DNA of 16,753 bases, from assembly GCA_005191425.1 (NCBI GenBank), contig SUPR01000075.1, positions 1 through 16,753 on the forward strand, given 5' to 3'. This document shows, in pieces, positions 1-16,753 of the stretch (position 1 is the stretch's first letter; the number at the start of each line of letters is the position of its first letter). The DNA comes from Candidatus Helarchaeota ASGARD archaeon Hel_GB_B. Its GTDB lineage: Archaea; Asgardarchaeota; Lokiarchaeia; Helarchaeales; HEL-GB-B. A model generated the notes under the pieces. That model saw only the letters and a program-made list of their open reading frames with translations. It was not told the DNA's origin and searched no databases. Both the position numbers and the translations under genes were made by a program.

Positions 1-87
1 CCTAAAAAGAAACCTAAAAAAAGTAAATCAAAAAGAGATCGAAAGAAATCAAAAAGAAGAAGAGGAAATAAATCTAAAAAATCTTGA
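1..87 (+). CDS. nop5: 3' end (partial) of Nop5 (Nop56/58-like) box C/D sRNP scaffold protein
   Basis: Frame 1 is open from base 1 and reads PKKKPKKSKSKRDRKKSKRRRGNKSKKS, ending at TGA 85-87. This Lys/Arg-rich tail sits directly upstream of fibrillarin, matching the conserved archaeal nop5-fibrillarin order. Only the tail is visible. Confidence 0.75.
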   Translation, partial: PKKKPKKSKSKRDRKKSKRRRGNKSKKS

Positions 88-780
88 GTGATTAAGATGA
101 AGTTTAAGAAAATTAAAGATATTGAAGGAGTCTTTGTTTATTATCAAAATGAATTGAAAAAGTTAGCTACAATAAACTTAATACCCGGAAAATCTGTTTA
201 TGGTGAAAATTTAATTAAAAGTGATGATCTTGAATATAGAAATTGGGCAATAAATAGAAGTAAATTAGCTGCAGCAATTTATAAAGGACTATCCAAATTA
301 CCTATTAAAACTGGCTCTGTTGTCTTATATTTAGGTGTATCGTCCGGGACTACTGCAAGTCATATCTCTGATATTATTGGTAATTCAGGTAGAATTTATG
401 GTGTTGATTTTGCTGAGCGTTCTATGAGAGATTTCGTTGCATTATGTGAAGAAAGAAAAAATTTAATCCCTATTTTAGCTGATGCTAGAATACCGGAATC
501 GTATAGGATGCTTATTGAAGAAGTCGATGGTATTTATATGGACGTTGCTCAACCTCAGCAAGCTAAAATATTAATTGATAATGCATTAATGTTTTTAAAA
601 CCAAAAGGATGGTTTCTATTATGTGTTAAATCCCAAAGTATTGATGTTACTAAAAAGCCATCTTTAGTTTTTGAAGAAGAAAAAAAGATTTTAGAAATAA
701 ATGATTTTGAAGTTAAGGAAGAAATAAATTTAGAACCGTTTAGTCTGGACCATGTATTATTTTATGGAATAATGAAATGA
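88..780 (+). CDS. flpA: Fibrillarin-like rRNA/tRNA 2'-O-methyltransferase (archaeal type, no GAR domain)
   Basis: Motifs PGKSVYGE, YRNW..NRSKLAAAI, VLYLGVSSGTTASHISDI, NLIPILADAR.P..Y, DVAQPQQA, LEPFSLDH. Start is GTG 88 or ATG 97. Confidence 0.96.
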   Translation: MIKMKFKKIKDIEGVFVYYQNELKKLATINLIPGKSVYGENLIKSDDLEYRNWAINRSKLAAAIYKGLSKLPIKTGSVVLYLGVSSGTTASHISDIIGNSGRIYGVDFAERSMRDFVALCEERKNLIPILADARIPESYRMLIEEVDGIYMDVAQPQQAKILIDNALMFLKPKGWFLLCVKSQSIDVTKKPSLVFEEEKKILEINDFEVKEEINLEPFSLDHVLFYGIMK

Positions 781-2373
781 TCAAGTTGTTTTATTTTCCT
801 CTTTTTCTGGTGAAATATAAAATCCACTATCAGCTACAAAATTAGGGTCAAATTTTGTTTTTATTTTCCTTAGCCAGATATGATAATTAGAGCATTGTGG
901 TCCATACCAATCGTGCATTTTGTCGCCTTCGATAAAAAATGGTATTCCTAAATGTTCTACTAAGTCTAATTTATTACACCTGTCCAAATATTCAACAAAT
1001 CCCTCAACACTTTCAACTTTTGTCTGGTCATACATTGTAGGGGTTTCTATATGATAAAAGTGTCCATGTTCATAACTTGTTGACCAATTACCTTTTCCTT
1101 CATCGTTCCCAATGAGCCCTTTATCTATATATTCTTTTTTTAAGGGTAGATTTCGTTCCATTAATACTCTACACAATCTTGAGGTATCCATAGAACCATG
1201 AGTTGATTGGAAAGCACCAGTTGCCAAAAATCCATGCATTCCTAATGCACTTCTTAAGGCTTCAGCATAGGCAATATTTGGTGGAATATATTTTCCGGTA
1301 GCTACTACATCTTTAACTTTTAATTCTTCAATTGCTGTTTTTAGTACTTTTTCCTTATATTCAAATTCTCGTTTAGTATTTGCCGTTATGAGTACTACTA
1401 ATGGATTTTTAATTCTCGGACTCGCCACTGCCCTGTTCATTAACTCTTCTTGAGTATTTGAAAAAATTGTATGAAGCCCATAAGTGGAGGTATGAAAACA
1501 CATAAATGTAATCCCCTCTTTTTCGATACGGTCAAAAGCAAGTTCAAGAGTTTCATAATTTTTACAAGAAATTAAATGGAATTGCATATAATTTGGTATA
1601 TCGAAATCATAGTTTGGTATTATATTTTTTATTTCTAATTGTTTTATATTACAAGGAAATGGAAATAACTTAATTGCAACTCTAGTAAATATTCCCAATC
1701 CAGATTTGGTACCGATAAATCCTCTCATAATTCCACGTAAGCTTGGTCCCGGGCCATCACCATGAAACCAATCTGAATTTTCTTTTAATGATAATGAACC
1801 TAATCTTAGAATCTCTCCAGTAGGGAGTACCCATTCAGTTCCTAGAACATTACGTCCACTAAAACCTGTTGATGATGAAGTAAAACCCGGCCCACACATT
1901 GAAGTGGAACTTGCTAATGGCGATACTTGTGGTCCTGCGCCTGGCATATGGCAATTTAATCCATATTTTAATAGTTCGGCTTGTAATTGTGCACCAGTAA
2001 CATATGGTTCTACGACACAATACATATTTTTAGGGTCTATTTTGACAATTTTATTCATTCGACGCAAGTCTACTACAATAACATCATCTTCCGATGGTTG
2101 ATTCCATGGACCAAGTCCGGTGCTTTGTGCTTTAAATTTTAAGTGATATTTATTGCATAATTTTACGAATTTTTGAACTTCTTCTGTAGTAGATGGCAGT
2201 ACAACGGCAATTGGTTTATGCCAAAATGGTATCGGGTCCTTACCTTCCATTACATTGATAAATTCAACACACCAATTATATGTATATGATTCAAGGATAA
2301 CTTCATTGTCAGTTGCGTTTTCCTTACCTACGATATCTTGGATCTCGTTCAAGATTTTTTTATCTATTTTCAT
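781..2373 (-). CDS. FAD-binding oxidoreductase, VAO/PCMH/GlcD superfamily (FAD_binding_4 plus FAD-oxidase C-terminal domain); substrate unknown
   Basis: PIAVVLPSTTEEVQKFVKLCN, VDLRRMNKIVKIDPKNMYCVVEPYVT, VLGTEWVLPTGE.LRLG, GTKSGLGIFT, C-terminal KIKTKFDPNFV. Confidence 0.85.
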   Translation of the reverse strand: MKIDKKILNEIQDIVGKENATDNEVILESYTYNWCVEFINVMEGKDPIPFWHKPIAVVLPSTTEEVQKFVKLCNKYHLKFKAQSTGLGPWNQPSEDDVIVVDLRRMNKIVKIDPKNMYCVVEPYVTGAQLQAELLKYGLNCHMPGAGPQVSPLASSTSMCGPGFTSSSTGFSGRNVLGTEWVLPTGEILRLGSLSLKENSDWFHGDGPGPSLRGIMRGFIGTKSGLGIFTRVAIKLFPFPCNIKQLEIKNIIPNYDFDIPNYMQFHLISCKNYETLELAFDRIEKEGITFMCFHTSTYGLHTIFSNTQEELMNRAVASPRIKNPLVVLITANTKREFEYKEKVLKTAIEELKVKDVVATGKYIPPNIAYAEALRSALGMHGFLATGAFQSTHGSMDTSRLCRVLMERNLPLKKEYIDKGLIGNDEGKGNWSTSYEHGHFYHIETPTMYDQTKVESVEGFVEYLDRCNKLDLVEHLGIPFFIEGDKMHDWYGPQCSNYHIWLRKIKTKFDPNFVADSGFYISPEKEENKTT

Positions 2374-2375
2374 TA

Positions 2376-3650
2376 TTATTCCTCCTTATCCTCCAAACTT
2401 TTTAATAATAATTCGCTCAAGTCATAAAATTTTAATTTTGAGCCCGAATCGTCAATTGCGTCTTTTAAATTGGTCGCACAAAATGGGCAAGCAGAAATTA
2501 AAGATTCTGCTCCTGTGGATTCTGCTTCATCAATTCGATTTTTAGCGGCAAATAGAGCAAAATCCGGATATTGAGCTTTAACTCCGCCTCCAGCTCCACA
2601 GCAATATGAATATTCTTTTATTCGTTCCATTTCTACAAAGTCAATTCCAGGTATTTTTTTCAGTACATTTCTTGGGGGTTCGTATGTCCCATTTGTACCT
2701 CGTCTAAGGGGTTTTGGTGGCACTGGAATGGAAATAAGTGGCATCACTTCGACCATCTTACCATTCCATTCAGGATATGGCTCAGAATCACGTCCTAAAT
2801 GGCATGGATCATGATAAGTTACTTTAATTTTTAGATTCTCTTTTAATTTTAATTTACCTTCATCAATCAATCTATTAAATAATTCTGATGTGTGAGTCAC
2901 CTTGAAATTATATTTTCGATAACGTGGATAATGTGCTTTAAATGTAGAATAACACCCTGCGCAGCTAAATACCACTTCTTCAATTCCTAAACTTTCAATT
3001 AGGTCTAGATTATGGTTCATTAATTCCAATGCTTCCTTTTTCATACCTGTCCTTAGTAAAGGACTTCCACAGCACCATTCATCTGAGCCTAAAAGTTGAA
3101 ATTCGACCCCTGCTTTATTTAATATTTTTGCTGTCGCCTTTGCAATTTCTTTTCTTCTATAAGATGATGTACATCCCACGAAATAAGCAATTTTAGCATT
3201 TTTACTTATTTTTATATCTTCTGAAACCCAGTCCATTCTTTGTTCTGGTGGTTCGTTATATGGATTATGTTTTTCCATAGCATATTCTGCATATAATTTC
3301 TGTTTAGGCATAGGTCCTATACCTTTTTCGACTAACAATTCCCGTAATTCATATATTATTTCAAGAGGTTCTAGCTTATTAAGATATTTACATGAAATTG
3401 CGCACCCACCACATGTAGAACATTTGTATACGATATCTGCAAGATCTTCACTTGGTTCAAGTCTATTTAAATATATCGATAAAGCAAGGATAATTTTGCC
3501 TCCTCCTGAATAAGTATGATAATTGTAATAATCAATAGATGGACAAATAGAGGCATATTTTTGACTTTTTATTTGAATCTGAGGAATCCACTTACATAAC
3601 GAACATCTTAAACATTTTTTAATTGTATCTTCATAATCTTCAAATGGCAT
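2376..3650 (-). CDS. HdrD/GlcF-like Fe-S protein (two ferredoxin-type motifs plus two CCG domains)
   Basis: CLRCSLC...CP and CSTCGGCAISC; CCG-domain motifs YFVGC, WCCGSP, FSCAGC, YHDPCHLGR, YCCGAGGG, SACPFC. Confidence 0.92.
   Translation of the reverse strand: MPFEDYEDTIKKCLRCSLCKWIPQIQIKSQKYASICPSIDYYNYHTYSGGGKIILALSIYLNRLEPSEDLADIVYKCSTCGGCAISCKYLNKLEPLEIIYELRELLVEKGIGPMPKQKLYAEYAMEKHNPYNEPPEQRMDWVSEDIKISKNAKIAYFVGCTSSYRRKEIAKATAKILNKAGVEFQLLGSDEWCCGSPLLRTGMKKEALELMNHNLDLIESLGIEEVVFSCAGCYSTFKAHYPRYRKYNFKVTHTSELFNRLIDEGKLKLKENLKIKVTYHDPCHLGRDSEPYPEWNGKMVEVMPLISIPVPPKPLRRGTNGTYEPPRNVLKKIPGIDFVEMERIKEYSYCCGAGGGVKAQYPDFALFAAKNRIDEAESTGAESLISACPFCATNLKDAIDDSGSKLKFYDLSELLLKSLEDKEE
2381..2387 (-). 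promoter_or_regulatory. Shine-Dalgarno site (AAGGAGG) for the 781-2373 gene, embedded in the last codons of the upstream gene
   Basis: Minus strand reads AAGGAGG-AATAATA-ATG (ATG at 2373). The SD is formed by the K-E-E codons before the TAA at 2378-2376. Confidence 0.75.
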
Positions 3651-3655
3651 ATTTT

Positions 3656-5104
3656 TTATTCCTCCTTAAAACATAATGCACCCCTGTTCATTATATTATT
3701 TGGGTCAAAAATTTCTTTTACTCTCCTTAATGCACTTATCGTTTCATTTGAAACTCTTGCATACATTTCATCAGCCCATAAACCATAGGGACGGTTGAAA
3801 AATGCTCCAATATCCATTAATTTTTTACTTATTTCAAGAAATGATTTCTTAATACTTCCTTCATTAGTGTCTGCCGGATTATAATACAAATCAAATTCGC
3901 AATGGACACCGCACCCTTGATTAATCGGTTGAATATATACGCCTAATTCTAAATCAGTCATCTTACTTACTAAATTATAATGTAATACTGTATTATCGAG
4001 AGTTGTTAGATAAAAAATATCTTGAAAACCACCCTTATATTTTAACCTCCATGATTCTTCGCAAGTTTCATGTATAATTTCAAAAATCTTACTATTATCT
4101 ATATTACCTAATGTTTCTGTCAATTTTATATTATAATCATTTATTACATCGTTTATGTCTGCCAATATATATGAAATCCTATCTTCTCCAAACTGTCCCA
4201 TTCCAGTAAAGTTTGTTATTAAAATCCAGTCCTTTAAATTGCTTAAATTTGAAATATCCGTTCCAAGCAGTGCAGCGAGATTAACTTTATTGACAATAAA
4301 TACCTCATCTGCAGTCCGATACTTTATCAAATAACGCATAAAATCAAAAAAATCTTCAAAATTGTCCGATTGGGAAAACATAAGTTTCTCAGTATCATAT
4401 AAATATTCGCACTTTATTGTCGCCCATGTAACTACACCAAAACAACCTTGTGCCCCTTGAATAAGTCTATAGGGACTAAATTGTGTTGGACCCATTGGAT
4501 TTTTTTGAGCCTGCCCACTTTCAATTTGTTCTTCAATAGTGCCCGGGCCAGCAGCTATACCAGTTCTAAAGTAATCTCCAGTTCCAAATATTACTTCAGT
4601 ACATAGTAAAGGGTCTGAACTATCCCATTGAAATCTTGGGACAATTGGGGGTTCTCGTTCAAGGGCACTTGATAATACCGATTTTGATTTTCTTGGGAAT
4701 AATGGATTTAGTAATCGTAAACCATTTTTTCCTGCTACATCTATTAATTCACCAAAAGTAACGCCTGGTTCTACCATAATTACTCTATTTTTTTTATCAA
4801 TTCGTAATATTTTGTTCATTTTTGATAAATTCATTATTATTGTATTATCCGATTTTGGGACTGTATCTCCATGAAAACGATATTTATTTGGCGAACTTAT
4901 AGGAATAATTGAAATGTTATTTTGATTAGCTAATTTAATAATATCTTGTACTTGATCTGTATTTTCTGGAAAAACAACTAGCAAAGGCTTAATTGGATCA
5001 ACCAAACTTTGATCTTTTGAATATTTCTCAAGGACTTCTTGGCCATCATTAACATTTTCTATGCCACAAATCTCGATCAATTTCTTTTTTATTTGATTAT
5101 TCAT
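3656..5104 (-). CDS. FAD-binding oxidoreductase, VAO/PCMH/GlcD superfamily; divergent paralog of 781-2373
   Basis: PLLVVFPENTDQVQDIIKLAN, MNLSKMNKILRIDKKNRVIMVEPGVT, GAQGCFGVVTWATIK, C-terminal RRVKEIFDPNNIMNRG. Confidence 0.87.
   Translation of the reverse strand: MNNQIKKKLIEICGIENVNDGQEVLEKYSKDQSLVDPIKPLLVVFPENTDQVQDIIKLANQNNISIIPISSPNKYRFHGDTVPKSDNTIIMNLSKMNKILRIDKKNRVIMVEPGVTFGELIDVAGKNGLRLLNPLFPRKSKSVLSSALEREPPIVPRFQWDSSDPLLCTEVIFGTGDYFRTGIAAGPGTIEEQIESGQAQKNPMGPTQFSPYRLIQGAQGCFGVVTWATIKCEYLYDTEKLMFSQSDNFEDFFDFMRYLIKYRTADEVFIVNKVNLAALLGTDISNLSNLKDWILITNFTGMGQFGEDRISYILADINDVINDYNIKLTETLGNIDNSKIFEIIHETCEESWRLKYKGGFQDIFYLTTLDNTVLHYNLVSKMTDLELGVYIQPINQGCGVHCEFDLYYNPADTNEGSIKKSFLEISKKLMDIGAFFNRPYGLWADEMYARVSNETISALRRVKEIFDPNNIMNRGALCFKEE
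3661..3667 (-). promoter_or_regulatory. Shine-Dalgarno site (AAGGAGG) for the 2376-3650 gene, embedded in the last codons of the upstream gene
   Basis: Minus strand reads AAGGAGG-AATAAAAAAT-ATG (ATG at 3650). The SD is again formed by K-E-E codons. Confidence 0.72.
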
Positions 5105-5445
5105 AAAACAACCCTTGCAAAATTTTAAAAATATAAGAATAATTTGATTGATAAATTTTCTCTTAAAAAAATAATTTATATTTTGACATTTGAGATTAAA
5201 TGGAACTCATTAAAATTTTTAAATATTTTCCCATCTCTATATATTTTTTAATTTTAATTTTACGATTATAGTAAAAAATAGATTAAAGAAAATAAAAAAA
5301 AATTATGATGGGTATTATTTTAATTATTATTTTTTTTTTGAGAATTTTAAAAGAAATTGTGGAACATCAAAAATTATAAAAATTAAAGTAATACACTTAA
5401 AAAATACCAAAAAATTAATTCACATTATCTAAAAAAAATTAGGCT

Positions 5446-6909
5446 ATGGCTCAAATGAAAAATTTTGATATGATCTTTATACATCCACCCAGAAATTTTG
5501 AGTATATGAAAAAAAATATCAAAACTAGAAGTTCATATATGATAATGCCAATGGGGATATTTGGATTGGCAGATTTATTAGACCGTGAAGGATATGCTAC
5601 CAAAATTATAAATTATATAATAGAACGTATAATTGACCCAAATTATTCCATAATCAAATTTTTGAAAAAAATTAATGTAAAAGTTATTGGGGTCGATTTA
5701 CATTGGGTTTTACATAGTGCTGGGTCGTTAGAGCTTTTAAGAGTGATAAAAAAGTATTTTCCATCTTGTTTTACTATTTTAGGTGGATTTACAGCAACAT
5801 ATTATGCTAAAGAAATAATGGAAAAATATAATTGGGTCGATGGAATAATTAAAGGTGATGCAGAAGAGCCCATCCTTAAATTAATGAAAAATCTAAATTC
5901 CTTAGATAAGGTTCCAAATTTAATTTATAGAGAAAATGGAAAAATTATCGATAATAAAATAACTTATGTAATAAGGGAATTAAACTCACTAAATTTTTCA
6001 AATTTAAAATTAATGGAACACTGGAATTCGTATTTAAATTATATTTATGATGTTATGCACATGGCATGGCCTGTCGAAATGGCTCGAGGCTGTATGTATA
6101 ATTGTGTTAATTGCGGGGGCTGTAATTATTCAAGCCAAGTTATTTCAAAAAGAAAATTTTATATTTTAAGACGCCCGGAACGTGTAGTAGATGACCTTAG
6201 AAATATAATGGAAATGAGCGATGTCAAGGGTATCTTCTATGGACATGGCGTTTATCCAAAAACCGAAAAATATTTTTTAAAAATTAATGAATTGATACGG
6301 AAAGAAAAACTTGATATTCATGCTGATTTAGAAATTTGGAGAATGCCCATAAGCAAAGAGTTTATTAAAGATTTTGCAAAAACATATATTATTGATAAAT
6401 CTCTACTCTGGTTCAGTGTACGTTCATTTTCTCAATATTATAGAAAAAAATATACCGAATATTTTGGGAAAATAGATAATGCCTTTAATTTCTCGGATAA
6501 AGATTTAAAAAACTTAATGAATCTTACAAAAAAATATAACGTAAAATTAAGGCTCTTTTGGGATGTTGGGAATCCATATGAAACAGGTCTTGATTTATTT
6601 GTTAATTTTCTCAAAGCATTTAAATTAATGGTCGAAAATATCTCTAAAAAAAGTAAGGTTGCTATGTGGTCTGAACCAATAAATTTATCACCGGGTTGTC
6701 TTGTAGAAATGTTTAGTGATGTCTTTGGTGTTAAAAAGCATATGAAAAATTTAAGCGATTATGTCGAAGCAGGTAAAAAGTCAAAAATGTTCCTTCCACC
6801 ACTTGATGTAAGCGTTAATTATAGCACCAATTATTTAACTAAAACTGGAATAAATCTAGCCAACAAATTAATGCTTTTAATAGATTTAATTTCTGTTATT
6901 ATGGACTGA
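5446..6909 (+). CDS. Cobalamin (B12)-binding radical SAM protein; substrate unknown
   Basis: N-terminal B12-binding-like region (PMGIFGLADLL, VIGVDLHW..H, TILGGFTAT, IIKGDAE), ARGCMYNCVNC (CxxxCxxC), RRPERVVDDL, VGNPYET. Confidence 0.88.
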   Translation: MAQMKNFDMIFIHPPRNFEYMKKNIKTRSSYMIMPMGIFGLADLLDREGYATKIINYIIERIIDPNYSIIKFLKKINVKVIGVDLHWVLHSAGSLELLRVIKKYFPSCFTILGGFTATYYAKEIMEKYNWVDGIIKGDAEEPILKLMKNLNSLDKVPNLIYRENGKIIDNKITYVIRELNSLNFSNLKLMEHWNSYLNYIYDVMHMAWPVEMARGCMYNCVNCGGCNYSSQVISKRKFYILRRPERVVDDLRNIMEMSDVKGIFYGHGVYPKTEKYFLKINELIRKEKLDIHADLEIWRMPISKEFIKDFAKTYIIDKSLLWFSVRSFSQYYRKKYTEYFGKIDNAFNFSDKDLKNLMNLTKKYNVKLRLFWDVGNPYETGLDLFVNFLKAFKLMVENISKKSKVAMWSEPINLSPGCLVEMFSDVFGVKKHMKNLSDYVEAGKKSKMFLPPLDVSVNYSTNYLTKTGINLANKLMLLIDLISVIMD

Positions 6910-6989
6910 TTTTTATTAAAAATTAACTAATAACTAATAAGAAATTCATCTTTTTAACAAAAAATATAATGAAATAACTATAAAAAATA

Positions 6990-7691
6990 TTAACGAGTTA
7001 GTATTTTATCGATACCATCACACAGCCAAAATATAGACAATCTCCAATCAATTTCAGCAAGATTTCTACGTTCTAACCATCGTAGATATTTTTTAGTTTC
7101 ATAAATACTTTTATTTAATTTAAATGCAGCTTTTTGAATTCCCTGTACTTCATCTTGAAATTCATAAAGAACTTTAAGCGTATCCTTAATATTATCAATC
7201 ACAGAAGTAATGATAGTTAAAATTGATTTTTCTATATTCTCACCAGTAATAGCACTGGTAGGAAATAATGGATAGTCATTCATAAAAGGAAAATATTGCT
7301 TAAGTTCATTAATAGATTTCTTCTCTTCTTCAGGAAGATCTTGTTTAGTAATTGCAATAACTTTTGGGATATTTGGAAGATAATCATCGAATTCTTTCCA
7401 AATTTTATTAACATCTGTAATATTCAAATCCGAAACGGGGTCTATAAGAAAAATTATACCATCTGCGCCATAAGATAAGATTTTTCTTACAGAATAGAAC
7501 CGTAAATGGCCTGGGGTCCCAAATAAGAATATTTTTAGCCCTTTAATATAAAGTACACCTAAATCTAACGCTACTGTAGTTTCATTTTTATCAATAGACA
7601 TTGCTGGATTATCTTTTCCGAACATTTCAGTAGCTTTTCGTACGAAACTACTTTTTCCAGCATGAAATGGCCCTGTTACTAATATTTTCAT
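6990..7691 (-). CDS. Small P-loop GTPase of the MglA/CvnD-like (COG2229-type) group with a C-terminal winged-helix-like extension
   Basis: G1 GPFHAGKS, G2 TTVALDLG, G3-equivalent FGTPGH.RF, G4 TKQD, G5 TSA. About 65 extra residues with a helix-turn-helix-wing pattern. Confidence 0.85.
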   Translation of the reverse strand: MKILVTGPFHAGKSSFVRKATEMFGKDNPAMSIDKNETTVALDLGVLYIKGLKIFLFGTPGHLRFYSVRKILSYGADGIIFLIDPVSDLNITDVNKIWKEFDDYLPNIPKVIAITKQDLPEEEKKSINELKQYFPFMNDYPLFPTSAITGENIEKSILTIITSVIDNIKDTLKVLYEFQDEVQGIQKAAFKLNKSIYETKKYLRWLERRNLAEIDWRLSIFWLCDGIDKILTR

Positions 7692-8099
7692 ATTTTTTCC
7701 CTTTTGTTAATTGAATTTTTGTCGGGAATTTAATATATTTTTTTAATTTTAATTATAATAGACTATTTGGTTTTTATTTATTTTTATTATCATTATTTTT
7801 ATTAGTAAATTAAATTAAAAGATATTAAAGAAATAAATCAATAAAAAATAAACATAAAATCCTTAATAAGACCTCAGATCATTAAAATTATCAAATTAAT
7901 AGGAACAATAAAGGAGATATTGAAAAGTTATATGCTCTATTTTATAAAGAATATCGGAAAAAACAAATTTTGGGATGTAAGGTATTGGACCAAGTATTAT
8001 ATAAAATTTTTTCAAATTTATATTATAATAATATAATTGAAATAAAAAATGAAATACTATAATGATTAAGAAAGCCGACAAAATTAAGTAATTCAGAAT

Positions 8100-9719
8100 T
8101 TAATGAGAATAAATATCTTCTTGTTTTTCCAAATCTTTAAATGAATTTACAACGTTGTCCGGATCTCCTATTTTTACTATTTTTCCTTGTTTCATAAGTG
8201 CGCACCGGTCACAGACAGCTGTCATAAAGTCTATGTCATGCGAAATTATAAAATATGTTTGGTGTAAATTTTTCCGAGCTTTTTTTATACTTTGGACTAT
8301 TTCCAACCGTGTCAATGGGTCTGCAGTCCCTGTTGGTTCGTCCAAGACTATTATTCGGGGCTCTTTTATAAAAACTCTAGCAATTGCAACTCTATGTCTT
8401 TCTCCCTCACTAATTTGATCTGGAAATTTATAGATTAGGTTGTCTATTTCTTTATTATTAAAGTTAACTGCTCTTAATGCTTCATATGCCTTTTTTGTTT
8501 TCATTTCTTCAGGCATAGGTGATTCTATAGCACCTATCAAATTGTCTAACACTGTTAAATGAGAAATTAGGCAATATTCTTGGTGGAGGATCTCCATATA
8601 TTTTGTTGCTCGCCCTCGTTCCTCAGGTCCGGGGACGCTCATATCAATCCATTCGTCTCCAATTTTTACAATAATTTTTCCCTTGGTGATCTTTTTCTCA
8701 CCGATCATCATCTGGACTAGTGACGTCTTTCCTGCTCCACTAACTCCAACTAATCCAAATATTTCTCCCTCATTTACATTAAATGAAACATCGTTCACAG
8801 CTCTAACAAGTCCACGGTCGTGCGTATAATATGTTTTCTTACAATTTTCAATTTTAATCAATGGTTTTGTGCAAACTTCTCTCTCAATTTCAATTTCACC
8901 CATTTTTGCCATAAATTCCGCTGCTATATCTTTTGATTTACCGATAGAAACCATTTCACCCATATCTAACAAAATTGCCTGGTCAGAAAGTTCAGCAACA
9001 GCAGCAGGCCAATGACTTGTAATTAATAGTGTTAGACCTTTTTCTTCTACAGATTTTTTCATGACATCATGAACGGTAACCGCTGTAACAGGATCTAAAG
9101 TACCAGATGGTTCATCAGCTATAAAAAGTAATGGGTCTTTAGCTAAACACATTGCAAAAACTGCTCTTTGCTTTTCACCGCCAGACAAATCTCGGGCTAA
9201 ATGCATTGCTCTATGACTAAGTCTAACATCTGACAAAAGCTGTAATGCTCTTTTATTAATGAGTTTATCTGGATAGTTTATATTTTTTAGTATTTTTTGG
9301 ATATTTGTAATTACGGGAAGTTCTCCATAAATACCAAAAGTTCTTTGAAACATAATAGCAATCCTGTTATATAGCGAGAAAGATATTGGAGTTAAATTTT
9401 TTCGTTCCTTCCAGTAGTCAATCTCTCTAAATTCTAATGTGCTTCCGCATTTATCACAGACTTCTCCTGCTTTACTGGGGTATTCTATCCAATTACAATT
9501 TGGACAGACTGCAACATTATAAATTACGCTTCCTGTCAGTGGGGCATGGTCTTTAGTACCCCGAATACAATTCATTAAAACAGATTTTCCTGAACCCGAT
9601 TTGCCTAATATTCCAAATGAAGCACCCTCATTTACTTCAAAATTGATTTGTTTGATGGCGGGTTCTCCTCGTACAAATTCTACTGATAAATCTCGTACTA
9701 TTAAAAACGGTCTGCCCAT
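8100..9719 (-). CDS. atwA: Methyl/alkyl-coenzyme M reductase system component A2 (AtwA-like double ABC ATPase with Zn-binding insert)
   Basis: Two ABC cassettes (GKSGSGKS/LSGGEKQR/IADEPSG and GVSGAGKT/ISEGERHR/VLDEPTG). The first cassette carries the insert YNVAVCPNC.WIEYPS..GEVCDKCG...IDYW, which I recognise as typical of component A2. No TM segments. ATG 9719 is preferred over the ORF-track TTG 9731. Confidence 0.85.
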   Translation of the reverse strand: MGRPFLIVRDLSVEFVRGEPAIKQINFEVNEGASFGILGKSGSGKSVLMNCIRGTKDHAPLTGSVIYNVAVCPNCNWIEYPSKAGEVCDKCGSTLEFREIDYWKERKNLTPISFSLYNRIAIMFQRTFGIYGELPVITNIQKILKNINYPDKLINKRALQLLSDVRLSHRAMHLARDLSGGEKQRAVFAMCLAKDPLLFIADEPSGTLDPVTAVTVHDVMKKSVEEKGLTLLITSHWPAAVAELSDQAILLDMGEMVSIGKSKDIAAEFMAKMGEIEIEREVCTKPLIKIENCKKTYYTHDRGLVRAVNDVSFNVNEGEIFGLVGVSGAGKTSLVQMMIGEKKITKGKIIVKIGDEWIDMSVPGPEERGRATKYMEILHQEYCLISHLTVLDNLIGAIESPMPEEMKTKKAYEALRAVNFNNKEIDNLIYKFPDQISEGERHRVAIARVFIKEPRIIVLDEPTGTADPLTRLEIVQSIKKARKNLHQTYFIISHDIDFMTAVCDRCALMKQGKIVKIGDPDNVVNSFKDLEKQEDIYSH

Positions 9720-9947
9720 ATTATCACACAAACAGATTATATTAAATTATTAATTTAATTTACTAAAAAGTTTTTCTTAAAAAAAATTTGGATATCACTA
9801 AATAAATTATCAATAAAAATATATTGAGTATTTAAGACCTTTTTCGTTTAAAATCTAATATATTAAAAATAAAATGAAAATTTAATTTATCATAATTATT
9901 TTTTGATGTCGAAAACAAATTATATAATATTATAAAATAGATTAATT

Positions 9948-10520
9948 TTATTTCGCACCATTTTTCTTTAATAAATTTACAATATTTTGATGATTAGAAG
10001 TAGATGCAAATTTTAATGCAGTAAAACCTGTTATTGTTTCTGCATATACATCAGCACCATTTTCAATAAGAAGTTTTACAATATCTTTAAACCCTCTCCA
10101 AGCAGCATACATTAAATTTGTCATATTATTTGTACCTTTAAAATTCATATCAGCACCACTTTCAATTGCCAATTTTGCAATTTCAAGCGACCCATTATCA
10201 CATGCGAACATTAATACCGAATCTTTATCATAAAATGATGCACCATTTTCCATTAAAACTTTTGCAGAACTTATATTTCCATTTTTGCATGCATAATCCA
10301 ATGCAGTATAATCTGAATTACTTATTTTATTTAAATCTGCCTTTGAAGCAATTAATATAACTATTATTTCGTCATGCCCTTGATATGCAGCATACATTAA
10401 CGCAGTGTGGCCATCTTCATCGCTATAATTAACATCTGCACCTTCACCTATGGCAAAAATTACTCCTTGAACATCTCCCGCTTTAGAAGCTTCAATTAAT
10501 TTTTCATTAATATTTTGCAT
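9948..10520 (-). CDS. Ankyrin repeat protein (about six repeats including caps)
   Basis: Repeats of [G/D/N]xT[A/N]L.YA...G...I.k.L...GAD.N, e.g. GHTALMYAAYQGH, DYTALDYACKNGN, NMTNLMYAAWRGF, GFTALKFAS. No other domain. Confidence 0.95.
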   Translation of the reverse strand: MQNINEKLIEASKAGDVQGVIFAIGEGADVNYSDEDGHTALMYAAYQGHDEIIVILIASKADLNKISNSDYTALDYACKNGNISSAKVLMENGASFYDKDSVLMFACDNGSLEIAKLAIESGADMNFKGTNNMTNLMYAAWRGFKDIVKLLIENGADVYAETITGFTALKFASTSNHQNIVNLLKKNGAK

Positions 10521-10657
10521 GTTGGCTAGATGGCTATTACTGGTCTAAAAATTTTTTGTAAAATAATTTCCTAATCTTACTATATTATCCACGTAATACT
10601 CAGACTATTATTTCTAACTTTACAAAAAGTAAGACAGGACATTAAAAAAAGTGAATA

Positions 10658-11752
10658 ATGATGTTTTCAATAGTAGATTCAATAATTGATGAGGAACGCA
10701 AGAAAAAAAATACTATAAATAACCCAATTAGCACTTCACAATCGATAAATCTTGAGCTTGAAGAAATTGTGAAACGAAGTCATGCAAGAATAATGATAGC
10801 TGGTGTTGGTGGTGCAGGAAATAATGCAATAACCAGGTTAATGGAATACGGAATTGATGATGCATTAACTCTAGCAATAAATACTGATGCTCAAGATTTG
10901 TTATATACCACATCCCATTATAAACTATTGATTGGAAAAGAGTTAACAAGAGGCCTAGGAGCAGGAAACCACCCACAAACTGGAGAAGCTGCTGCAAGAG
11001 AAAGTATAGAAGAAATTAAAAATCAAATTAAAGATGTGGATCTACTATTTATTACTGCTGGAATGGGCGGAGGTACTGGAACTGGAGCTGCACATGTAGT
11101 TGCAGAGATAGCCCAAGAATTAGGGGTTCTTACTGTATCAACTTGTACTCTACCATTTAATGTTGAAGGCAACAAAAAAAGACAAAATGCAATGTGGGGA
11201 CTAACTAAATTAGCAAATTCTTCTGACACGATTATAGTAATTCCTAATCAAAGACTTATTGAATTAGCACCGGATTTATCACTAGGAGAGGCATTTAGAG
11301 TTGCTGATGAAATTTTAATTCGCGGTGTTAGAGGTATCACTGAATTGATCACAAAACCAGGATTAGTTAATCTCGATTTTGCAGATATAAGGACCATTTT
11401 AAGCAGTAATGGTAAAGCAGGTGGCGAAGCAATTATTGGGCTCGGAGAATCTGATTCAAATAATCGGGCAGAAGTCGCAACTCGAAATGCATTAAATAAC
11501 CCATTACTTGACGTTAATTATATGAATGCAAAAGGTGCATTAGTAAATATTTGCGGCGATTCTAATCTTACCCTTCAAGAGGCTGAAACTGTTATGCGAA
11601 TTCTAACCGAAGAACTTAACCCTGATGTCGAAGTGATCTGGGGAGCTCTAATCAACCCAGACCTCAAAAATAAATTGAGAGTAACTTTAATATTAAGTGG
11701 CATTGATTCAAATAATTTTATTTCTAATGATTTGGAATTTAATCCATTATGA
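10658..11752 (+). CDS. ftsZ: Cell division protein FtsZ, archaeal FtsZ1 type
   Basis: GVGGAGNNA, AINTDAQDL, GLGAG, tubulin signature AGMGGGTGTGA, T7 loop NLDFAD, VIWGA. The N-terminal FSIVDSIIDEE helix and the position upstream of secE-spt5 fit the FtsZ1 clade. Confidence 0.97.
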   Translation: MMFSIVDSIIDEERKKKNTINNPISTSQSINLELEEIVKRSHARIMIAGVGGAGNNAITRLMEYGIDDALTLAINTDAQDLLYTTSHYKLLIGKELTRGLGAGNHPQTGEAAARESIEEIKNQIKDVDLLFITAGMGGGTGTGAAHVVAEIAQELGVLTVSTCTLPFNVEGNKKRQNAMWGLTKLANSSDTIIVIPNQRLIELAPDLSLGEAFRVADEILIRGVRGITELITKPGLVNLDFADIRTILSSNGKAGGEAIIGLGESDSNNRAEVATRNALNNPLLDVNYMNAKGALVNICGDSNLTLQEAETVMRILTEELNPDVEVIWGALINPDLKNKLRVTLILSGIDSNNFISNDLEFNPL

Positions 11753-11760
11753 ACTTAATT

Positions 11761-11800
11761 TCTTCTGAAATTCTTTTTAATTCTTTTTATTTTTTAATTT
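11761..11800 (+). terminator. Possible oligo-T archaeal terminator after ftsZ
   Basis: TTCTTTTTA twice, followed by TTTTTT, starting about 10 nt after the ftsZ stop. Weak evidence given the AT-rich background. Confidence 0.35.
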
Positions 11801-12063
11801 TAAGTCAAATAATTCAAAAAAAATAATTCAATAAATTACACATAAGTTTTTATTTGAGCGAAACGGTTTGTTCTATTATCTAAACTATGAAAAATATTCT
11901 AAATAATCCTTTAATTAAAAAAATTTAAATAACATGAAACTTTTAAATCGTTAATAATCGTCAAAAAATCAATTAATTTTCTAATATTCTTAAAATTTGA
12001 TGGAAACTAATAATTTTCAGAATAATTTTTAAATAAAATAAATAATGTTTGTGATGAATATAA

Positions 12064-12303
12064 ATGGTGAATATTAAGTTATTTTGGCAGAATGCAAAAA
12101 GAACTTTAAAATTAGCCCGTAAGCCAACTCTTAAAGAATTTAGAATGATAGCAAGAATTTGTGCACTTGGAGTTGTAATAATTGGCTTTATTGGTTATGC
12201 AATTCAGATGATATTCCAATTTCTAGTTATTCCATTCTTTACAAGTATGCCTAATCGTAGCCTATTAATTGATATTATAATGTTATTGATTTTATTGATA
12301 TAA
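12064..12303 (+). CDS. secE: Protein translocase subunit SecE / Sec61-gamma
   Basis: AKRTLKLARKPTLKEFRMIARI (amphipathic helix plus KP hinge), then TM ALGVVIIGFIGYAI. Lies between ftsZ and spt5. Confidence 0.93.
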   Translation: MVNIKLFWQNAKRTLKLARKPTLKEFRMIARICALGVVIIGFIGYAIQMIFQFLVIPFFTSMPNRSLLIDIIMLLILLI

Positions 12304-12324
12304 CCGAAGGGCAGTGATATTAAA

Positions 12325-12927
12325 TTGGTCGAAATTAATCTTAAAGAGCGTAAAAAAGAACAAGGGTCTTCTATATATGCAATTCGTACTACTATTGGGC
12401 AAGAAAAACTTGTTGCAAATGCAATACAACTCCGAGTTAAAAATGATAACTTAAAAATTAAAGCACTTTTAGTACCTCAAGTATTAAAAGGTTATTTATT
12501 TGTCGAAGCATTGGAAGCAGCTGTTGTCACTCAAGCTATCCGGGGAATTAAACATGTCCGAGGTTATAATGTCGTTGGTAAAGTCGATATCTCTGAAATT
12601 GAGCACTTCCTAATTCCAGCACCTCCAACAAAAGGATTAAATGTTAATGATATTGTAGAAATAATTTCTGGGCCGTTTAAAGGAGAAAAAGCTAAGATTA
12701 CTCGAATAGATTCTTCTAAAGATGAAGTTATCTTAGAATTGTTTGAAAGCCCTTATCCAATACCGATTAGAGTTCATGCTGATTTTATTAAATTGATCCA
12801 ATCATCATTAGAATCCGAAAAGAAAGAAGAGAAGAAAGTAAGTAAAAAAGAAACTACAGAAAAAAGCGAAGAAAAAGAAGTATCTGAGGAAGGGACTGAG
12901 GAAAAAGAAGTCTTCTTTAAAATATAA
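12325..12927 (+). CDS. spt5: Transcription elongation factor Spt5 (NusG family), NGN plus KOW domains, with charged C-terminal tail
   Basis: IYAIRTTIGQEK, LKGYLFVEA, IRGIKHVRG, KOW DIVEIISGPFKGEKAKI, PIPIRV. TTG start with SD-like AGTGAT at 12313-12318. Confidence 0.95.
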   Translation: MVEINLKERKKEQGSSIYAIRTTIGQEKLVANAIQLRVKNDNLKIKALLVPQVLKGYLFVEALEAAVVTQAIRGIKHVRGYNVVGKVDISEIEHFLIPAPPTKGLNVNDIVEIISGPFKGEKAKITRIDSSKDEVILELFESPYPIPIRVHADFIKLIQSSLESEKKEEKKVSKKETTEKSEEKEVSEEGTEEKEVFFKI

Positions 12928-13023
12928 TATTTCTCCATTTGAAATAATTTCAAAAAGGTTATCAACAATATTATTAAGTATTTTCTAACTTTTTCTTAAA
13001 ATTCAAATTTTATATTTTATTTC

Positions 13024-13545
13024 TTATCCTAAAGGTTCAACAATCAGTCCTGGTGTATCTACCTCTATAAACACTTGGTATTTTGAAGATTGTACACGCT
13101 TAATTTTTTCAGAAGGTGATTTTGACCTGATAATTATCCTTTTAGTAGGAAAATTTGTCAACTTACTAGAACTCTCTATTGAATATTTATATAAATTCTT
13201 GTTCAACATCTCTATTTTTTTCTTTAACTCGAAATTCTCTTTTTCAAGTTTTTTAACTTTTTCATATTGAATGTCTATAGTATTATTAGAAGTATTTTCG
13301 TCTTTTGCTTTAGATTCTAAGTTAGTCGAACCTATCCAATAAATTTTTGTACCATTTTTTTCTCGACTAGTTTTTATACTGTTCGAGGCTTTTAAAATCG
13401 CTATAATATCATATATCCGTCTTCTAGGTATTTCCAATTTTTTTGCAAGTTCAATATTATTAATTCCGTCAGTACCTGCCTTCTGTAATAAACTGATTGC
13501 TTCTTTTGCAATATCAACTAATTTCATTATTAATCTCTTATCCAT
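13024..13545 (-). CDS. E2F/DP-family-like winged-helix DNA-binding protein with leucine-zipper coiled coil and C-terminal beta-rich region
   Basis: ISLLQKA...ELAKKLEIP-RRRIYDIIAILKASNSI...IYWIG resembles the E2F DNA-binding domain as I recall it (VSLLQEA...AADTL..QKRRIYDITNVLEGIGLI...IQWKG). Heptad L100/L107/L114 follows. Family call is from memory, not from a search. Confidence 0.72.
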   Translation of the reverse strand: MDKRLIMKLVDIAKEAISLLQKAGTDGINNIELAKKLEIPRRRIYDIIAILKASNSIKTSREKNGTKIYWIGSTNLESKAKDENTSNNTIDIQYEKVKKLEKENFELKKKIEMLNKNLYKYSIESSSKLTNFPTKRIIIRSKSPSEKIKRVQSSKYQVFIEVDTPGLIVEPLG

Positions 13546-13790
13546 ATTTTTAAAAGAAATTATAGTCTATAATGATATTGTAATTCAAACTTAAAAAAAT
13601 TTATGAAAAAATAACTATATTTTCTTTTAACATTTTATATATTATTTTACAACATATTTTAACAATTATTAAAAATTCATTAAGTACCAACTTTACATCC
13701 TTTAAAAATATTATAATTATAATTTCCCTTTTTTTACAAATCAAAGAGAAAATTAAAATAAAAGTTCCATCTATTTATTAAAGAAAATAA

Positions 13791-14384
13791 ATGAAAATTT
13801 ATAAATTTAAATGCGTAAAATGCGGAAATTGTTGTAGAAATAAAAATCTAATAGTTACTATAACTCATTATGATTTATTAAAAATTTATTACACTTTAAA
13901 GCTTAATTCAATAGATGATTTATTAGATATTGTAGCATTTTACGAAATTGATATTAATGATAAAGAATTATTAAAAAGATTGATTTATCCAGAATTTATT
14001 ATAAATAATAAATATTGTATTCTGGGCCTAAATAAAAATAATGACGGTTCATGTATTTATTTAAAAGACAATAAATGTACTATTTATAAAATAAGACCAA
14101 AAATATGTCGAATTTTTCCATTTAATTTTATTGAAAAATCCAATAATCTACAACCACAAATTAACCCATTAGCAGTCGATATTTGTGAAGGACTTAATAA
14201 AGGAACAGTAGTGAATTTTAGTTTATTTAAAGAAATATATATTAAAATAAATGACGAAATGAAAGAATATAAAAAACTAATATCTTTATGGAATAATTTA
14301 GTAATTAATAAAGTAATTGAACCAAGTCCAAAAGTCTTTCTTAATTTTATTTCGGGAAATATTAATATAAAAGTTGAAAATTAG
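13791..14384 (+). CDS. YkgJ-family (CxxCxxCC) putative Zn/Fe-chelating protein
   Basis: FKCVKCGNCC, CIYLKDNKCTIYKIRPKICRIFPF, terminal CEG. Confidence 0.9.
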   Translation: MKIYKFKCVKCGNCCRNKNLIVTITHYDLLKIYYTLKLNSIDDLLDIVAFYEIDINDKELLKRLIYPEFIINNKYCILGLNKNNDGSCIYLKDNKCTIYKIRPKICRIFPFNFIEKSNNLQPQINPLAVDICEGLNKGTVVNFSLFKEIYIKINDEMKEYKKLISLWNNLVINKVIEPSPKVFLNFISGNINIKVEN

Positions 14385-14496
14385 GATTAGACTGATATGA
14401 TTTTATTTAATTTCATTAAAATCTACATGTTATCCTTTACAAACTCACAAAAAATTTATATTATTAATTAGATTAAAGTAATGTATTCTATTTAAT

Positions 14497-14502
14497 AGGT
14501 GA
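14497..14502 (+). promoter_or_regulatory. Archaeal Shine-Dalgarno site AGGTGA
   Basis: AGGTGA-AATTA-ATG supports ATG 14508 as the start, rather than the ORF-track GTG 14499. Confidence 0.65.
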
Positions 14503-14507
14503 AATTA

Positions 14508-14879
14508 ATGTCATTAGAAGACGAAATTAAAGAATTAGAAGAACAATTGGCTAAAAAAAAGTCTGAAGTAAAGGAACTTGAAGAAAAGTTGGAGCAATTG
14601 CGAGCAAAAACACAAGGGGCCAAACCAAAGACTGTATTAGGTGTCCCTATTAATACTAGCGGAACTGGTACTAAAAAGAAAGTTATTCAACAACGAATCC
14701 CTACAAGTGGTACCTCTCAAATTAAATATAGAGAAACATCTTTTCAATGCCCACAATGTGGTTCCTATTATAATATTGAAATTGATGACAAATCCAGAAT
14801 TTTATATATTGATGGGGCAGGAACAAGAATTTATGGTAAAAAACATAGATGTCTTAATTGTGGGAACGAATTTAGATAA
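14508..14879 (+). CDS. Hypothetical protein: N-terminal coiled coil, low-complexity linker, C-terminal Zn ribbon
   Basis: Heptads LEDEIKELEEQLAKKKSEVKELEEKLEQL; CPQC...CLNC ribbon with a long beta-hairpin insert (IEIDDKSRILY...IYGKKHRC). Confidence 0.85.
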   Translation: MSLEDEIKELEEQLAKKKSEVKELEEKLEQLRAKTQGAKPKTVLGVPINTSGTGTKKKVIQQRIPTSGTSQIKYRETSFQCPQCGSYYNIEIDDKSRILYIDGAGTRIYGKKHRCLNCGNEFR

Positions 14880-15110
14880 CAATAATAATTTTAAAAAAAA
14901 TATTGTAAATATTTTATTAATTTGCACCTTTACATTCTATTATATCTTGTTTTTCTTTTATTTTATAAATTTTAAATATTTTAAATTCAATCTAATTGAT
15001 TCTTATGTATACAAATAAAAAAATAACTATGATAATAATTATTACCCTTTTTAATTATGATATTTGAACTCATTGGTTTTTCTTGTAATTATTAAATGAA
15101 AAAAAGCCTA

Positions 15111-16283
15111 TTATGAATTTAAAATGTCCGTTAATTTATTTATTACGATTGCCAACGATTCTTTTTTTATGATTAATGGTGGTAGCATTCTAATTGTAGA
15201 TATTCCTGAAGTCAATAATAAAATACCCCTTTTGATAGCTTCTAATATAAATTTTTTGATTCTGATCCGGGTTTCAATAGCAACAAATAGACCTTTTCCT
15301 CGGATATCTCTAATTAATTTGGATTCTGATAAATTTTCTTTAAGTTCATCTAAAAGATAATCTCCTAGTTGTCTAGATTTTTCAGGTAATTTTTCATTTA
15401 TTACTATATCAATAACTGAGAGTGCCGCAGCACAAGCTAATGGATTTCCACCAAAAGTAGAAAAATGGTCTCCTTGACTTAATTTCGAATATATTTCATC
15501 GCTACTGACCGTGATTCCAATTGGTATTCCACCAGCAACTCCTTTTGCAAGACATAAAATATCTGGTTCAATCCCATAATGCTGAAAAGCAAATAATTTA
15601 CCTGTTCTGCCAAATCCTGTCTGAACTTCATCAATAATTAATAATAAATCTTTTTCATCACAAAGTTCTCGTAGTTCTTTATGGAATTCAGGTGGTGGTA
15701 ATATTACTCCACCCTCTCCTTGAATTATTTCAGTAATTATTGCACCTGTTTTTTTATTGATATTTGACCGAACATCATCGATATCACCGAACTTGGCATG
15801 TTTAAATCCAGGTACTAATGGTTCAAAAGGTCTTCGATAATTTATCTTCCAAGTTGCAGAAAGGGAACCAAATGTCCTGCCATGAAAACCTCCTGTCATT
15901 GATATAATTTCGTTTTTATCTTTTCCCTGATATTTTCTAACTAATTTAATAGCAGCTTCAACAGATTCTGTTCCAGAATTTGAAAAAAATGATCTTGTTA
16001 AATGTTTTGGGGTCAAGTCATTAATTTTTTTAGCTAACAAAGCTCTTTTATCATTAAAATATATAGTTGGACAGACCAATAATTCTGATGCTTGTTTTTG
16101 TATTGCTTTTGTTACTTTTGGGTGGCAATGTCCAACTAATGCAACTCCATTGCCTCCAGCGCAATCAATGTATTTCTTACCTTCAACATCCCAGACAAAT
16201 TCATCTTGGGCTTTTATAAGGACTATAGGACGTCTTGGGAATATAGCTGGGATATGATTATTTTCCATTTCAATAAATTCCAA
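15111..16283 (-). CDS. lysJ: Class III PLP aminotransferase, LysJ/ArgD type ([LysW]-aminoadipate semialdehyde / glutamate semialdehyde transaminase)
   Basis: YIDC.GG.GVALVGH, NSGTESVEAAIK, FHGRT, LSATW..NYRRPFEPL (LysJ-like), IQGEGG, DEVQTGFGRTG, LAKG..GG, STFGGNPLAC. TTG start with GGTGA at 16292-16288; alternative ATG at 16268. Confidence 0.85.
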   Translation of the reverse strand: MEFIEMENNHIPAIFPRRPIVLIKAQDEFVWDVEGKKYIDCAGGNGVALVGHCHPKVTKAIQKQASELLVCPTIYFNDKRALLAKKINDLTPKHLTRSFFSNSGTESVEAAIKLVRKYQGKDKNEIISMTGGFHGRTFGSLSATWKINYRRPFEPLVPGFKHAKFGDIDDVRSNINKKTGAIITEIIQGEGGVILPPPEFHKELRELCDEKDLLLIIDEVQTGFGRTGKLFAFQHYGIEPDILCLAKGVAGGIPIGITVSSDEIYSKLSQGDHFSTFGGNPLACAAALSVIDIVINEKLPEKSRQLGDYLLDELKENLSESKLIRDIRGKGLFVAIETRIRIKKFILEAIKRGILLLTSGISTIRMLPPLIIKKESLAIVINKLTDILNS

Positions 16284-16393
16284 AAAATCACCACATACTC
16301 TTCCATAGAATTAGTTCAATAATCTTTTGTTTTGTTTAAAACAAATATATACCAAATATGTTATGGATGAATTAAAAAGGATTAAATCGAGGA

Positions 16394-16753
16394 TTAAATC
16401 GGATGAATTCCAGGAAATACAAGGCCCATAGTTTCATCAAATCCGAACATTATATTCATTGATTGAACAGCAGACCCAGAAGCACCTTTGATCAAGTTGT
16501 CTAATGCAGAAAGAACTACAATTCTATTCATGGACTCGTCAATTTCAAATCCCACATCACAAAAATTAGAACCAATAACTATCTTGGGGTCGGGTAATCG
16601 AAAATTTCCAACTTTTTGTTTTATAATTCTGACAAATGGCTCATTATTATATTTTGCTCTAAAAAGTTTCCATAACTCTCTATCTTCTACAGTTCTATTA
16701 GTAAAAACTTGAATTGTGGTCAAAATGCCCCGTACCATACTAACACCATGAGC
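16394..16753 (-). CDS. lysY: 3' part (partial, runs off window) of LysY/ArgC-type N-acetyl-gamma-glutamyl-phosphate / [LysW]-aminoadipyl-phosphate reductase
   Basis: Frame is open to the window edge (AHGVSMVRGILTT). Motifs R.PDPK.V.GSNFCDVGFE, LDNLIKGASGSAVQ.MN and terminal FPGIHP fit the LysY subtype. Directly upstream of lysJ. Confidence 0.85.
   Translation of the reverse strand, partial: AHGVSMVRGILTTIQVFTNRTVEDRELWKLFRAKYNNEPFVRIIKQKVGNFRLPDPKIVIGSNFCDVGFEIDESMNRIVVLSALDNLIKGASGSAVQSMNIMFGFDETMGLVFPGIHPI

Follow-up and report, generated by a model that had tools for sequence, protein, structure and literature searches.

Together with Rb, E2F-DP forms the eukaryotic G1/S switch, and the origin of that switch is part of the question of eukaryogenesis. 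The presence of the E2F/DP DNA-binding domain in Asgard archaea is already accepted. The locus described here raises the question of how far the likeness extends beyond that domain, that is, whether such an archaeal protein has only the DNA-reading part of the eukaryotic factors or also the part through which they pair. The gene concerned, which we call the E2F/DP-like gene, lies on contig SUPR01000075.1 of Candidatus Helarchaeota archaeon Hel_GB_B; the window, by which we mean the whole stretch of DNA analyzed, comprises positions 1–16,753 of that contig, and all positions are counted within it (Table 1). Judged from its sequence, the encoded protein is a genuine Asgard member of the E2F/DP winged-helix family, and we consider it likely (a probability of roughly 0.7) that it is a small, sequence-specific DNA-binding regulator that acts as a symmetric homodimer and belongs to an already known Asgard family.

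The E2F/DP Winged Helix

The Pfam family E2F_TDP (PF02319) matched residues 12–72 with 33.6 bits (E = 3.2e-8; gathering score 25.7 bits), covering positions 8–65 of the 65 in the profile, and a six-frame search of the genome found the same place at 35.5 bits. No other Pfam family exceeded its gathering score anywhere in the protein. The next winged-helix family, TrmB (PF01978), reached 17 bits (cut-off 25.6; E = 0.0053), 16 bits behind E2F_TDP, which was also above cut-off in every relative tested. When all PDB sequences were searched, E2F8 was the closest match (E = 0.0023), followed by E2F4. A first, sequence-only reading of this DNA had proposed a prokaryotic E2F/DP homolog, to be abandoned in favor of a generic winged-helix protein if no significant E2F_TDP score was found; the Pfam result, together with the archaeal nature of the contig, bears the proposal out. 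Translation likewise places the motifs where that reading had them, with ISLLQKA at residues 17–23, RRRIYDIIAIL (including RRIYD) at residues 41–51 and IYWIG at residues 68–72, ahead of a heptad repeat and a tail (residues 136–172, RIIIRSKSP...KYQVFIEVDTPGLIVEPL).

The motif is strongly conserved: PRRRxYDIIAI is invariant among the 16 closest homologues, and R42, R43, Y45, D46, and W70 are invariant across 28 family members. AlphaFold2 (AF2) gave, for the full-length protein, helices at residues 9–23, 30–37, and 41–53, two wing strands, a further helix at 87–120 and four strands, so that the winged-helix fold is present with its three helices and two-strand wing and with the conserved Trp (W70) at its end. 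A structure search with the full model returned only generic winged helices (Z-alpha, ArsR, MarR, TrmBL2), which is to be expected and does not discriminate, because winged-helix folds are too alike between families. The one departure within the recognition region that had been noticed from the letters, Ala in place of the Asn of DxxNV, is real: the protein reads DIIAIL, vs. DITNVL and DIVNVL in E2F4 and E2F8, and Ala49 is invariant in the 16 closest homologues. The Asn of DxxNV(L) is conserved in eukaryotic E2F and DP and is not a Pfam family criterion.

The C-Terminal Half and Its Predicted Self-Pairing

The half of the protein that follows the winged helix was also modeled by itself (residues 87–173, from archaeal sequences only), with a predicted local distance difference test (pLDDT) value of 86. 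The model consists of one long helix and four strands (136–141, 148–153, 158–162, and 167–172), in keeping with the strand-rich tail at about residues 136–172 in the sequence-only reading. The helix has a heptad core with V97, L100, N104, L107, I111, L114, and L118 at its a and d positions; the parallel coiled coil that it is predicted to form after the winged helix is seen in the models, as the helix at 87–120 and as self-contacts of a and d residues.

When two copies of residues 87–173 were given for prediction as a homodimer, they paired with a score of 0.56, whereas the best of three controls scored 0.00. The runs agreed in at least 97% of contacts, with a partner pLDDT of at least 78. Among proteins solved as one-chain pairs, 20 of 30 reach the pairing mark, and among those solved as single chains 1 of 23 does, although these benchmark counts apply only approximately here because our own alignment was used. 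The predicted contacts between the chains are in register on the a and d positions (11-11, 14-14, 18-18, 21-21, 25-25, and 28-28, which are residues 97, 100, 104, 107, 111, and 114 of the full-length protein) and continue as strand-strand contacts. A pass of this kind may reflect likeness rather than binding, because E2F-DP complexes of similar shape have already been solved. A six-frame search found a single E2F_TDP gene in the host genome, which is 93.7% complete, and neither RB_A (E up to 1) nor DP-domain models matched there. Since there is one copy, no DP-domain or Rb match, and a self-pairing prediction that passed its controls, the protein is probably a homodimer, as the sequence-only reading had also supposed; the absence of an Rb-binding or transactivation tail, which it had claimed as well, is evident from the chain itself, which ends one residue past the last strand.

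The more demanding question is whether the coiled coil and the tail are related to the E2F-DP coiled-coil/marked-box (CC-MB) module. In a Foldseek search of 350,542 PDB chains with the model of residues 87–173, the top seven matches were all CC-MB chains of E2F/DP (5TUV, 2AZE, 5TUU), at E-values of 0.39–4. Among 550,129 Swiss-Prot models of the AlphaFold database (AFDB), the top three matches were the CC-MB regions of Drosophila E2f1, Arabidopsis DPB, and Drosophila Dp, and E2F/DP entries stood at ranks 3, 9, 15, 17, and 18 of 2.3 million AFDB clusters. Language-model features also put clusters of PF16421 (E2F_CC-MB) first, both for residues 87–173 (0.77) and for the tail alone (residues 126–173; 0.79), but scores below 0.9 are leads only, and context from the winged helix may leak into the embedding of a fragment. 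The case for kinship is that these rankings agree on one rare family, though each score falls below its own threshold.

A good deal weighs against this kinship. Every Foldseek E-value was non-significant, with template modeling (TM) scores of 0.3–0.43; the structural comparison with E2F-DP that had been suggested from the sequence ranked E2F/DP chains first at non-significant values. VIA gave Z = 4.9 for 2AZE_B, at a root-mean-square deviation of 10.1 over 81 residues. At the level of sequence, PF16421 and PF08781 (DP) had no match to the protein at E-values up to 10, and just 2 of 28 family tails touched PF16421 (E = 0.035 and 0.37). None of the 301 genomes of the phylum had PF16421 above cut-off, and the weak matches listed were scattered, of coiled-coil type, and in no case at an E2F_TDP locus. 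A profile comparison by hhalign of the Asgard tail alignment with 65 bird E2F2 CC-MB regions gave P = 0.53, the E2F side being shallow (Neff 1.6) because the search had returned bird E2F2 only. By Smith-Waterman alignment, the tail scored 19.7 against the E2F2 marked box, compared with 20.2 for shuffled and 22.1 for reversed tails (z = -0.7), and an HMM of the tail found only coiled-coil noise among the PDB sequences. The by-eye alignment of the tail with the marked box in the sequence-only reading is thus without statistical support. The sequence tests agree with Eme et al. (2023) that homology ends at the DNA-binding domain.

The chief alternative follows from these results. E2F/DP homology could end at the winged helix, with the coiled coil and beta tail an Asgard-specific dimerization module that has come to resemble CC-MB by convergence. 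This is a serious possibility, though we hold it to be somewhat short of even odds. It would account for the uniformly negative sequence tests and for structural matches that stay at E-values of 0.4 or worse and TM scores below 0.45. It would also fit the limit placed on the homology by Eme et al. (2023) and the occurrence of a winged helix plus a dimerizing helix in archaeal regulators of TrmB type (TrmBL2, 138 columns); to place a small interleaved sheet after a helix is, after all, a simple route to dimerizing. Convergence explains less readily why independent libraries put the same rare family first from a model that lacks the winged helix, or why the language-model search of the tail does so with the coiled coil left out as well. 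The protein also agrees with E2F-DP in its domain order and in its predicted parallel, in-register zipper, and the two weak PF16421 matches are collinear, at profile positions 6–69 and 3–85 of 96, extending beyond the zipper. On these models, homology of the coiled coil and tail with the E2F-DP CC-MB module stands at about one half.

If that homology holds, the Asgard proteins would already have the whole structural core of E2F/DP in the form of a homodimer, and the E2F-DP heterodimer would have arisen by duplication and divergence, including the platform later bound by the C-termini of Rb-family proteins, rather than by later domain fusion. We regard this proposal, which is contrary to Eme et al. 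(2023), as evenly balanced. If it is true, the pairing architecture predates eukaryotes, and the step to be explained is the duplication into E2F and DP and the recruitment of Rb, not the invention of the dimer. Because the protein is small (~170 aa) and single-copy, its oligomeric state, its structure, and its DNA motif are directly testable in vitro.

Proposed Mechanism and Candidate Targets

As a homodimeric regulator, the protein would work as follows. The E2F_TDP winged helix of each chain would read bases through its RRxYD recognition helix. Two such winged helices would be held together by the leucine-zipper-like parallel coiled coil (residues ~90–120) and the interleaving four-strand tail (136–172), and, being so held, would favor a palindromic or near-palindromic binding site. 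Because the protein lacks an N-terminal arm, a partner paralogue, and an Rb-binding tail, it would have to be controlled differently from eukaryotic E2F.

The search for binding sites did not favor this reading. The E2F core SGCGCS was not enriched between genes, with 19 intergenic sites vs. ~210 in genes, a ratio like that of other GC-only hexamers; it does not occur in the window and was not found upstream of the gene or of most homologues. SGCGCS sites were consequently rejected as a lead to targets for want of intergenic enrichment. No link of the E2F/DP-like protein to cell-cycle control could be demonstrated in the present analysis. No RNA run is listed among the public sequencing runs that contain the sequence. 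An association of the gene with ftsZ-secE-spt5 and an ankyrin gene was also considered and set aside as not conserved: it recurs only in the close relative L002 and is absent from Hel-type, Thor-type, and other loci.

Two kinds of genes do recur beside E2F-like genes, a CxxCxxCC gene in several Asgard lineages and a cyclophilin-like gene at the majority of the loci that were compared. The gene for a putative metal-binding CxxCxxCC protein (PF03692), which adjoins the E2F-like gene in the window, does so in L002, L003/L004, L007, L012, L017, and L018 too; its orientation is divergent in the window and co-oriented in a Helarchaeota contig. A cyclophilin-like gene (PF04126) adjoins the E2F-like gene, mostly tail to tail, in L003–L007, L010–L015, and L017–L020 and does not occur in the window. 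The PF04126 adjacency was found in four contexts of different lineages and at 10 of the 12 loci from genomes of two further families, while the three PF04126 genes of the host genome sit on other contigs (C8, C48, and C172). The cyclophilin-like and CxxCxxCC genes may be the best first candidate targets.

Upstream of the Thor-type homologues there is a conserved element, TTCGAAAAATCG, sometimes in tandem 16 nt apart and ahead of a conserved TATA-like stretch. It was located at positions 1797–1824 of L010 and upstream of L006, L011, L013, L015, L019, and L020, and, with at most one mismatch, it occurs 35 times in genome G075, vs. 2 occurrences of a reversed control. We discarded it as a lead to a regulon: the genes at the best G075 sites are unrelated (EMC3-like, VWA/VIT, nuclease, permease), and the element is absent from the window.

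These results bear on another explanation, namely that, although able to bind DNA, the protein does not act as a gene-specific transcription factor and would instead be a winged-helix protein associated with the nucleoid or the replication origin. The lack of an enriched candidate site speaks for this, as do neighbors that vary between lineages without a coherent regulon and the role of TrmBL2, one of the structural matches to the full model, as a chromatin protein. Even so, we think it improbable. The base-reading residues of RRxYD are invariant, which argues for sequence-specific reading, and a single copy beside a conserved adjacent or divergent gene, here the CxxCxxCC gene, is typical of a local prokaryotic regulator.

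The Asgard Family and Its Archaeal Context

The E2F/DP-like gene sits among archaeal genes. Its neighbors in the window encode fibrillarin, a Ras-like GTPase, an ABC-F ATPase, an ankyrin protein, FtsZ, SecE, Spt5 (NGN-KOW), and the CxxCxxCC protein, and a 92-kb contig from a different metagenome has the same gene order. The gene is free of introns, and GC content stays at 22–35% throughout. When 1.84 billion representatives were searched exhaustively with HMMER, only 40 proteins matched; the named relatives are proteins of metagenome-assembled genomes of Loki-, Hel-, and Promethearchaeota, and the sole non-archaeal proteins identified among the 40 are eukaryotic E2F proteins (P0051 and P0053).

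A search of 301 species genomes of the phylum detected E2F_TDP in 123, which are distributed among many families, and a search of 14 control genomes detected it in none. The family is a small one and was met here only in Asgard archaea. E2F_TDP was not detected in any genome searched of two other families of the same class (69 and 7 genomes), many of which are 95–100% complete. Within the class its occurrence is patchy, since the host's own family has it, as does one genome of the host's order. The three-part layout recurs across Asgard lineages: the family HMM matches most homologues end to end, and because it does, the winged helix, the coiled coil, and the tail can be said to travel together. 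Variant architectures occur as well. In L009 (834–1190, minus strand), a protein of 119 aa has the winged helix joined straight to the beta tail without a coiled coil, and in L016 (1495–1950, plus strand), one of 152 aa differs in its C-terminal half, which the family HMM leaves unmatched.

It would be possible, in principle, to see in the protein a generic archaeal winged-helix regulator of TrmB, MarR, or ArsR type in which RRxYD is a chance likeness. The weak TrmB match (17 bits, E = 0.005) points that way, but this explanation is very unlikely: E2F_TDP alone exceeds its gathering score, by 16 bits over TrmB and in all relatives tested, the closest PDB sequences are E2F8 and E2F4, eukaryotic E2F proteins are the sole identified non-archaeal matches, the motif is invariant across the family, and structural likeness between winged-helix families does not discriminate. 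Although E2F_TDP is otherwise a eukaryotic family, eukaryotic contamination or a recent transfer from a eukaryote is scarcely credible given the low GC content, the lack of introns, the spread of the family over so many archaeal genomes, and flanking genes that proved archaeal, a point on which the sequence-only reading had made its proposal depend, with an order that recurs in another metagenome; flanking genes and recurrent order together exclude contamination of the assembly.

The protein, then, is a member of the Asgard E2F/DP family, and that family is not new. Homologues across most Asgard groups were described by Eme et al. (2023; Nature, PMC10307638, Suppl. 4.1.5; table of eukaryotic signature proteins, arCOG02749), who cite de Mendoza and Sebe-Pedros (2019; ref. 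44 therein) for the first report, and are repeated in a 2024 review (PMC7617429). With reports from 2019 and 2023 in the literature, the novelty of the finding had been overestimated in the sequence-only reading. A Sifarchaeia sequence in the table of Eme et al. (2023) has a layout like that of P0013–P0017, which are themselves matches of the present protein at E-values of 1e-19 to 1e-21, and the protein thus belongs to the published family. As described by Eme et al. (2023; Suppl. 4.1.5), the Asgard proteins are homologous to E2F/DP in the DNA-binding domain only and have no dimerization domain. A marked-box-like dimer module in the Asgard homologues is an unpublished reading, plausible but unproven.

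Comparison With Known Systems

The Asgard E2F/DP homologues described earlier are likewise small and have PF02319 at the N-terminus and conserved residues for base contact, and the present protein shows no difference in kind from them (Eme et al., 2023). The one disagreement is with the description and not with the proteins: a dimerization domain was said to be lacking, whereas our models predict that the conserved C-terminal half forms one, similar in appearance to the E2F-DP module.

With the typical E2F1-6 and DP1/2 (PF02319 plus PF16421/PF08781; 1CF7, 2AZE, 5TUU, 5TUV), the protein has in common the RRxYD winged helix and, in so far as the prediction holds, the order of winged helix, parallel coiled coil, and small two-chain beta module; these proteins are also the best-ranked structural matches of its C-terminal model. 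Typical E2F-DP, however, is a heterodimer of paralogues, whereas the present protein is predicted to be a homodimer of one gene product. Unlike the typical factors, it is without the N-terminal arm for the T-rich half-site and without a transactivation or Rb-binding tail (no Rb gene was found in the host genome), it has Ala for the Asn of DxxNV, and its CC-MB region has no detectable sequence similarity to theirs. It is also smaller, with ~170 aa vs. 280–470 aa.

The atypical E2F7 and E2F8 (4YO2), which include the closest PDB sequence match, act without DP and place two RRxYD winged helices on each site. They do so with tandem winged helices in one chain and no coiled coil, whereas here two chains are predicted to be joined by a coiled coil. 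Finally, TrmB and TrmBL2 (PF01978; 5BPD) are likewise archaeal, with a winged helix followed by a long dimerizing helix, and the alignment of TrmBL2 with the full model extends over 138 columns. TrmB differs in that it is below the Pfam cut-off here, has another recognition-helix motif, and carries a large C-terminal domain unrelated to the 40-residue tail.

Gene Features and Neighboring Genes

The features of the locus are listed in Table 1. To go by the sequence comparison, the true start of the E2F/DP-like protein is probably M7, at nt 13527, giving 167 aa; this start is favored because homologues begin there (MKL or MRL), as does an identical 167-aa database entry (P0002). The divergent intergenic region presumably holds the promoters of both the E2F-like and the CxxCxxCC gene.

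Table 1. Features of the E2F/DP-like gene and the adjoining region, in window coordinates.
Feature	Position	Strand	Basis and remarks
E2F/DP-like open reading frame	13024–13545	-	173 aa plus stop
E2F_TDP-type winged-helix DNA-binding domain, residues 12–72	13330–13512	-	Pfam PF02319; six-frame genome search agrees on place; AF2 pLDDT 86–88
RRIYD, the RRxYD motif of the recognition helix, residues 42–46	13408–13422	-	Translation; aligns to RRIYD of E2F4 and E2F8
Polar low-confidence linker, residues 73–86	13288–13329	-	pLDDT ~50; length and sequence variable among homologues
Long helix, residues 87–120, predicted parallel in-register coiled coil	13186–13287	-	AF2 helix pLDDT 85–93 in C-terminal model; dimer self-contacts
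Four-strand beta tail, residues 136–172, marked-box-like architecture, predicted to interleave with second chain	13030–13140	-	pLDDT 87–92; inter-chain contacts; Foldseek and language-model rankings
Divergent intergenic region, E2F-like gene to CxxCxxCC gene	13546–13790	.	AT-rich, ~15% GC
CxxCxxCC (PF03692) gene	13791–14384	+	Pfam E = 5e-14

Several of the surrounding genes have features of their own. Spt5 (12325–12927, plus strand) has, after its NGN and KOW domains, a tail of ~45 residues rich in Lys, Glu, and Ser, so that the protein exceeds the length needed for these domains; its relative in L002 is 226 aa long. The window also contains a gene for a Ras/Roc-like small GTPase (6990–7691, minus strand) and a gene encoding ankyrin repeats only (9948–10520, minus strand), the latter divergent from ftsZ. 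In L002, the GTPase gene is kept, and the ABC-F gene and ftsZ have no ankyrin gene between them. Two overlapping reading frames follow the CxxCxxCC gene (14499–14879 and 14641–15018, both on the plus strand), one of them with sub-cut-off matches to SlyX and to a small zinc-finger (HVO_2753-like) family.
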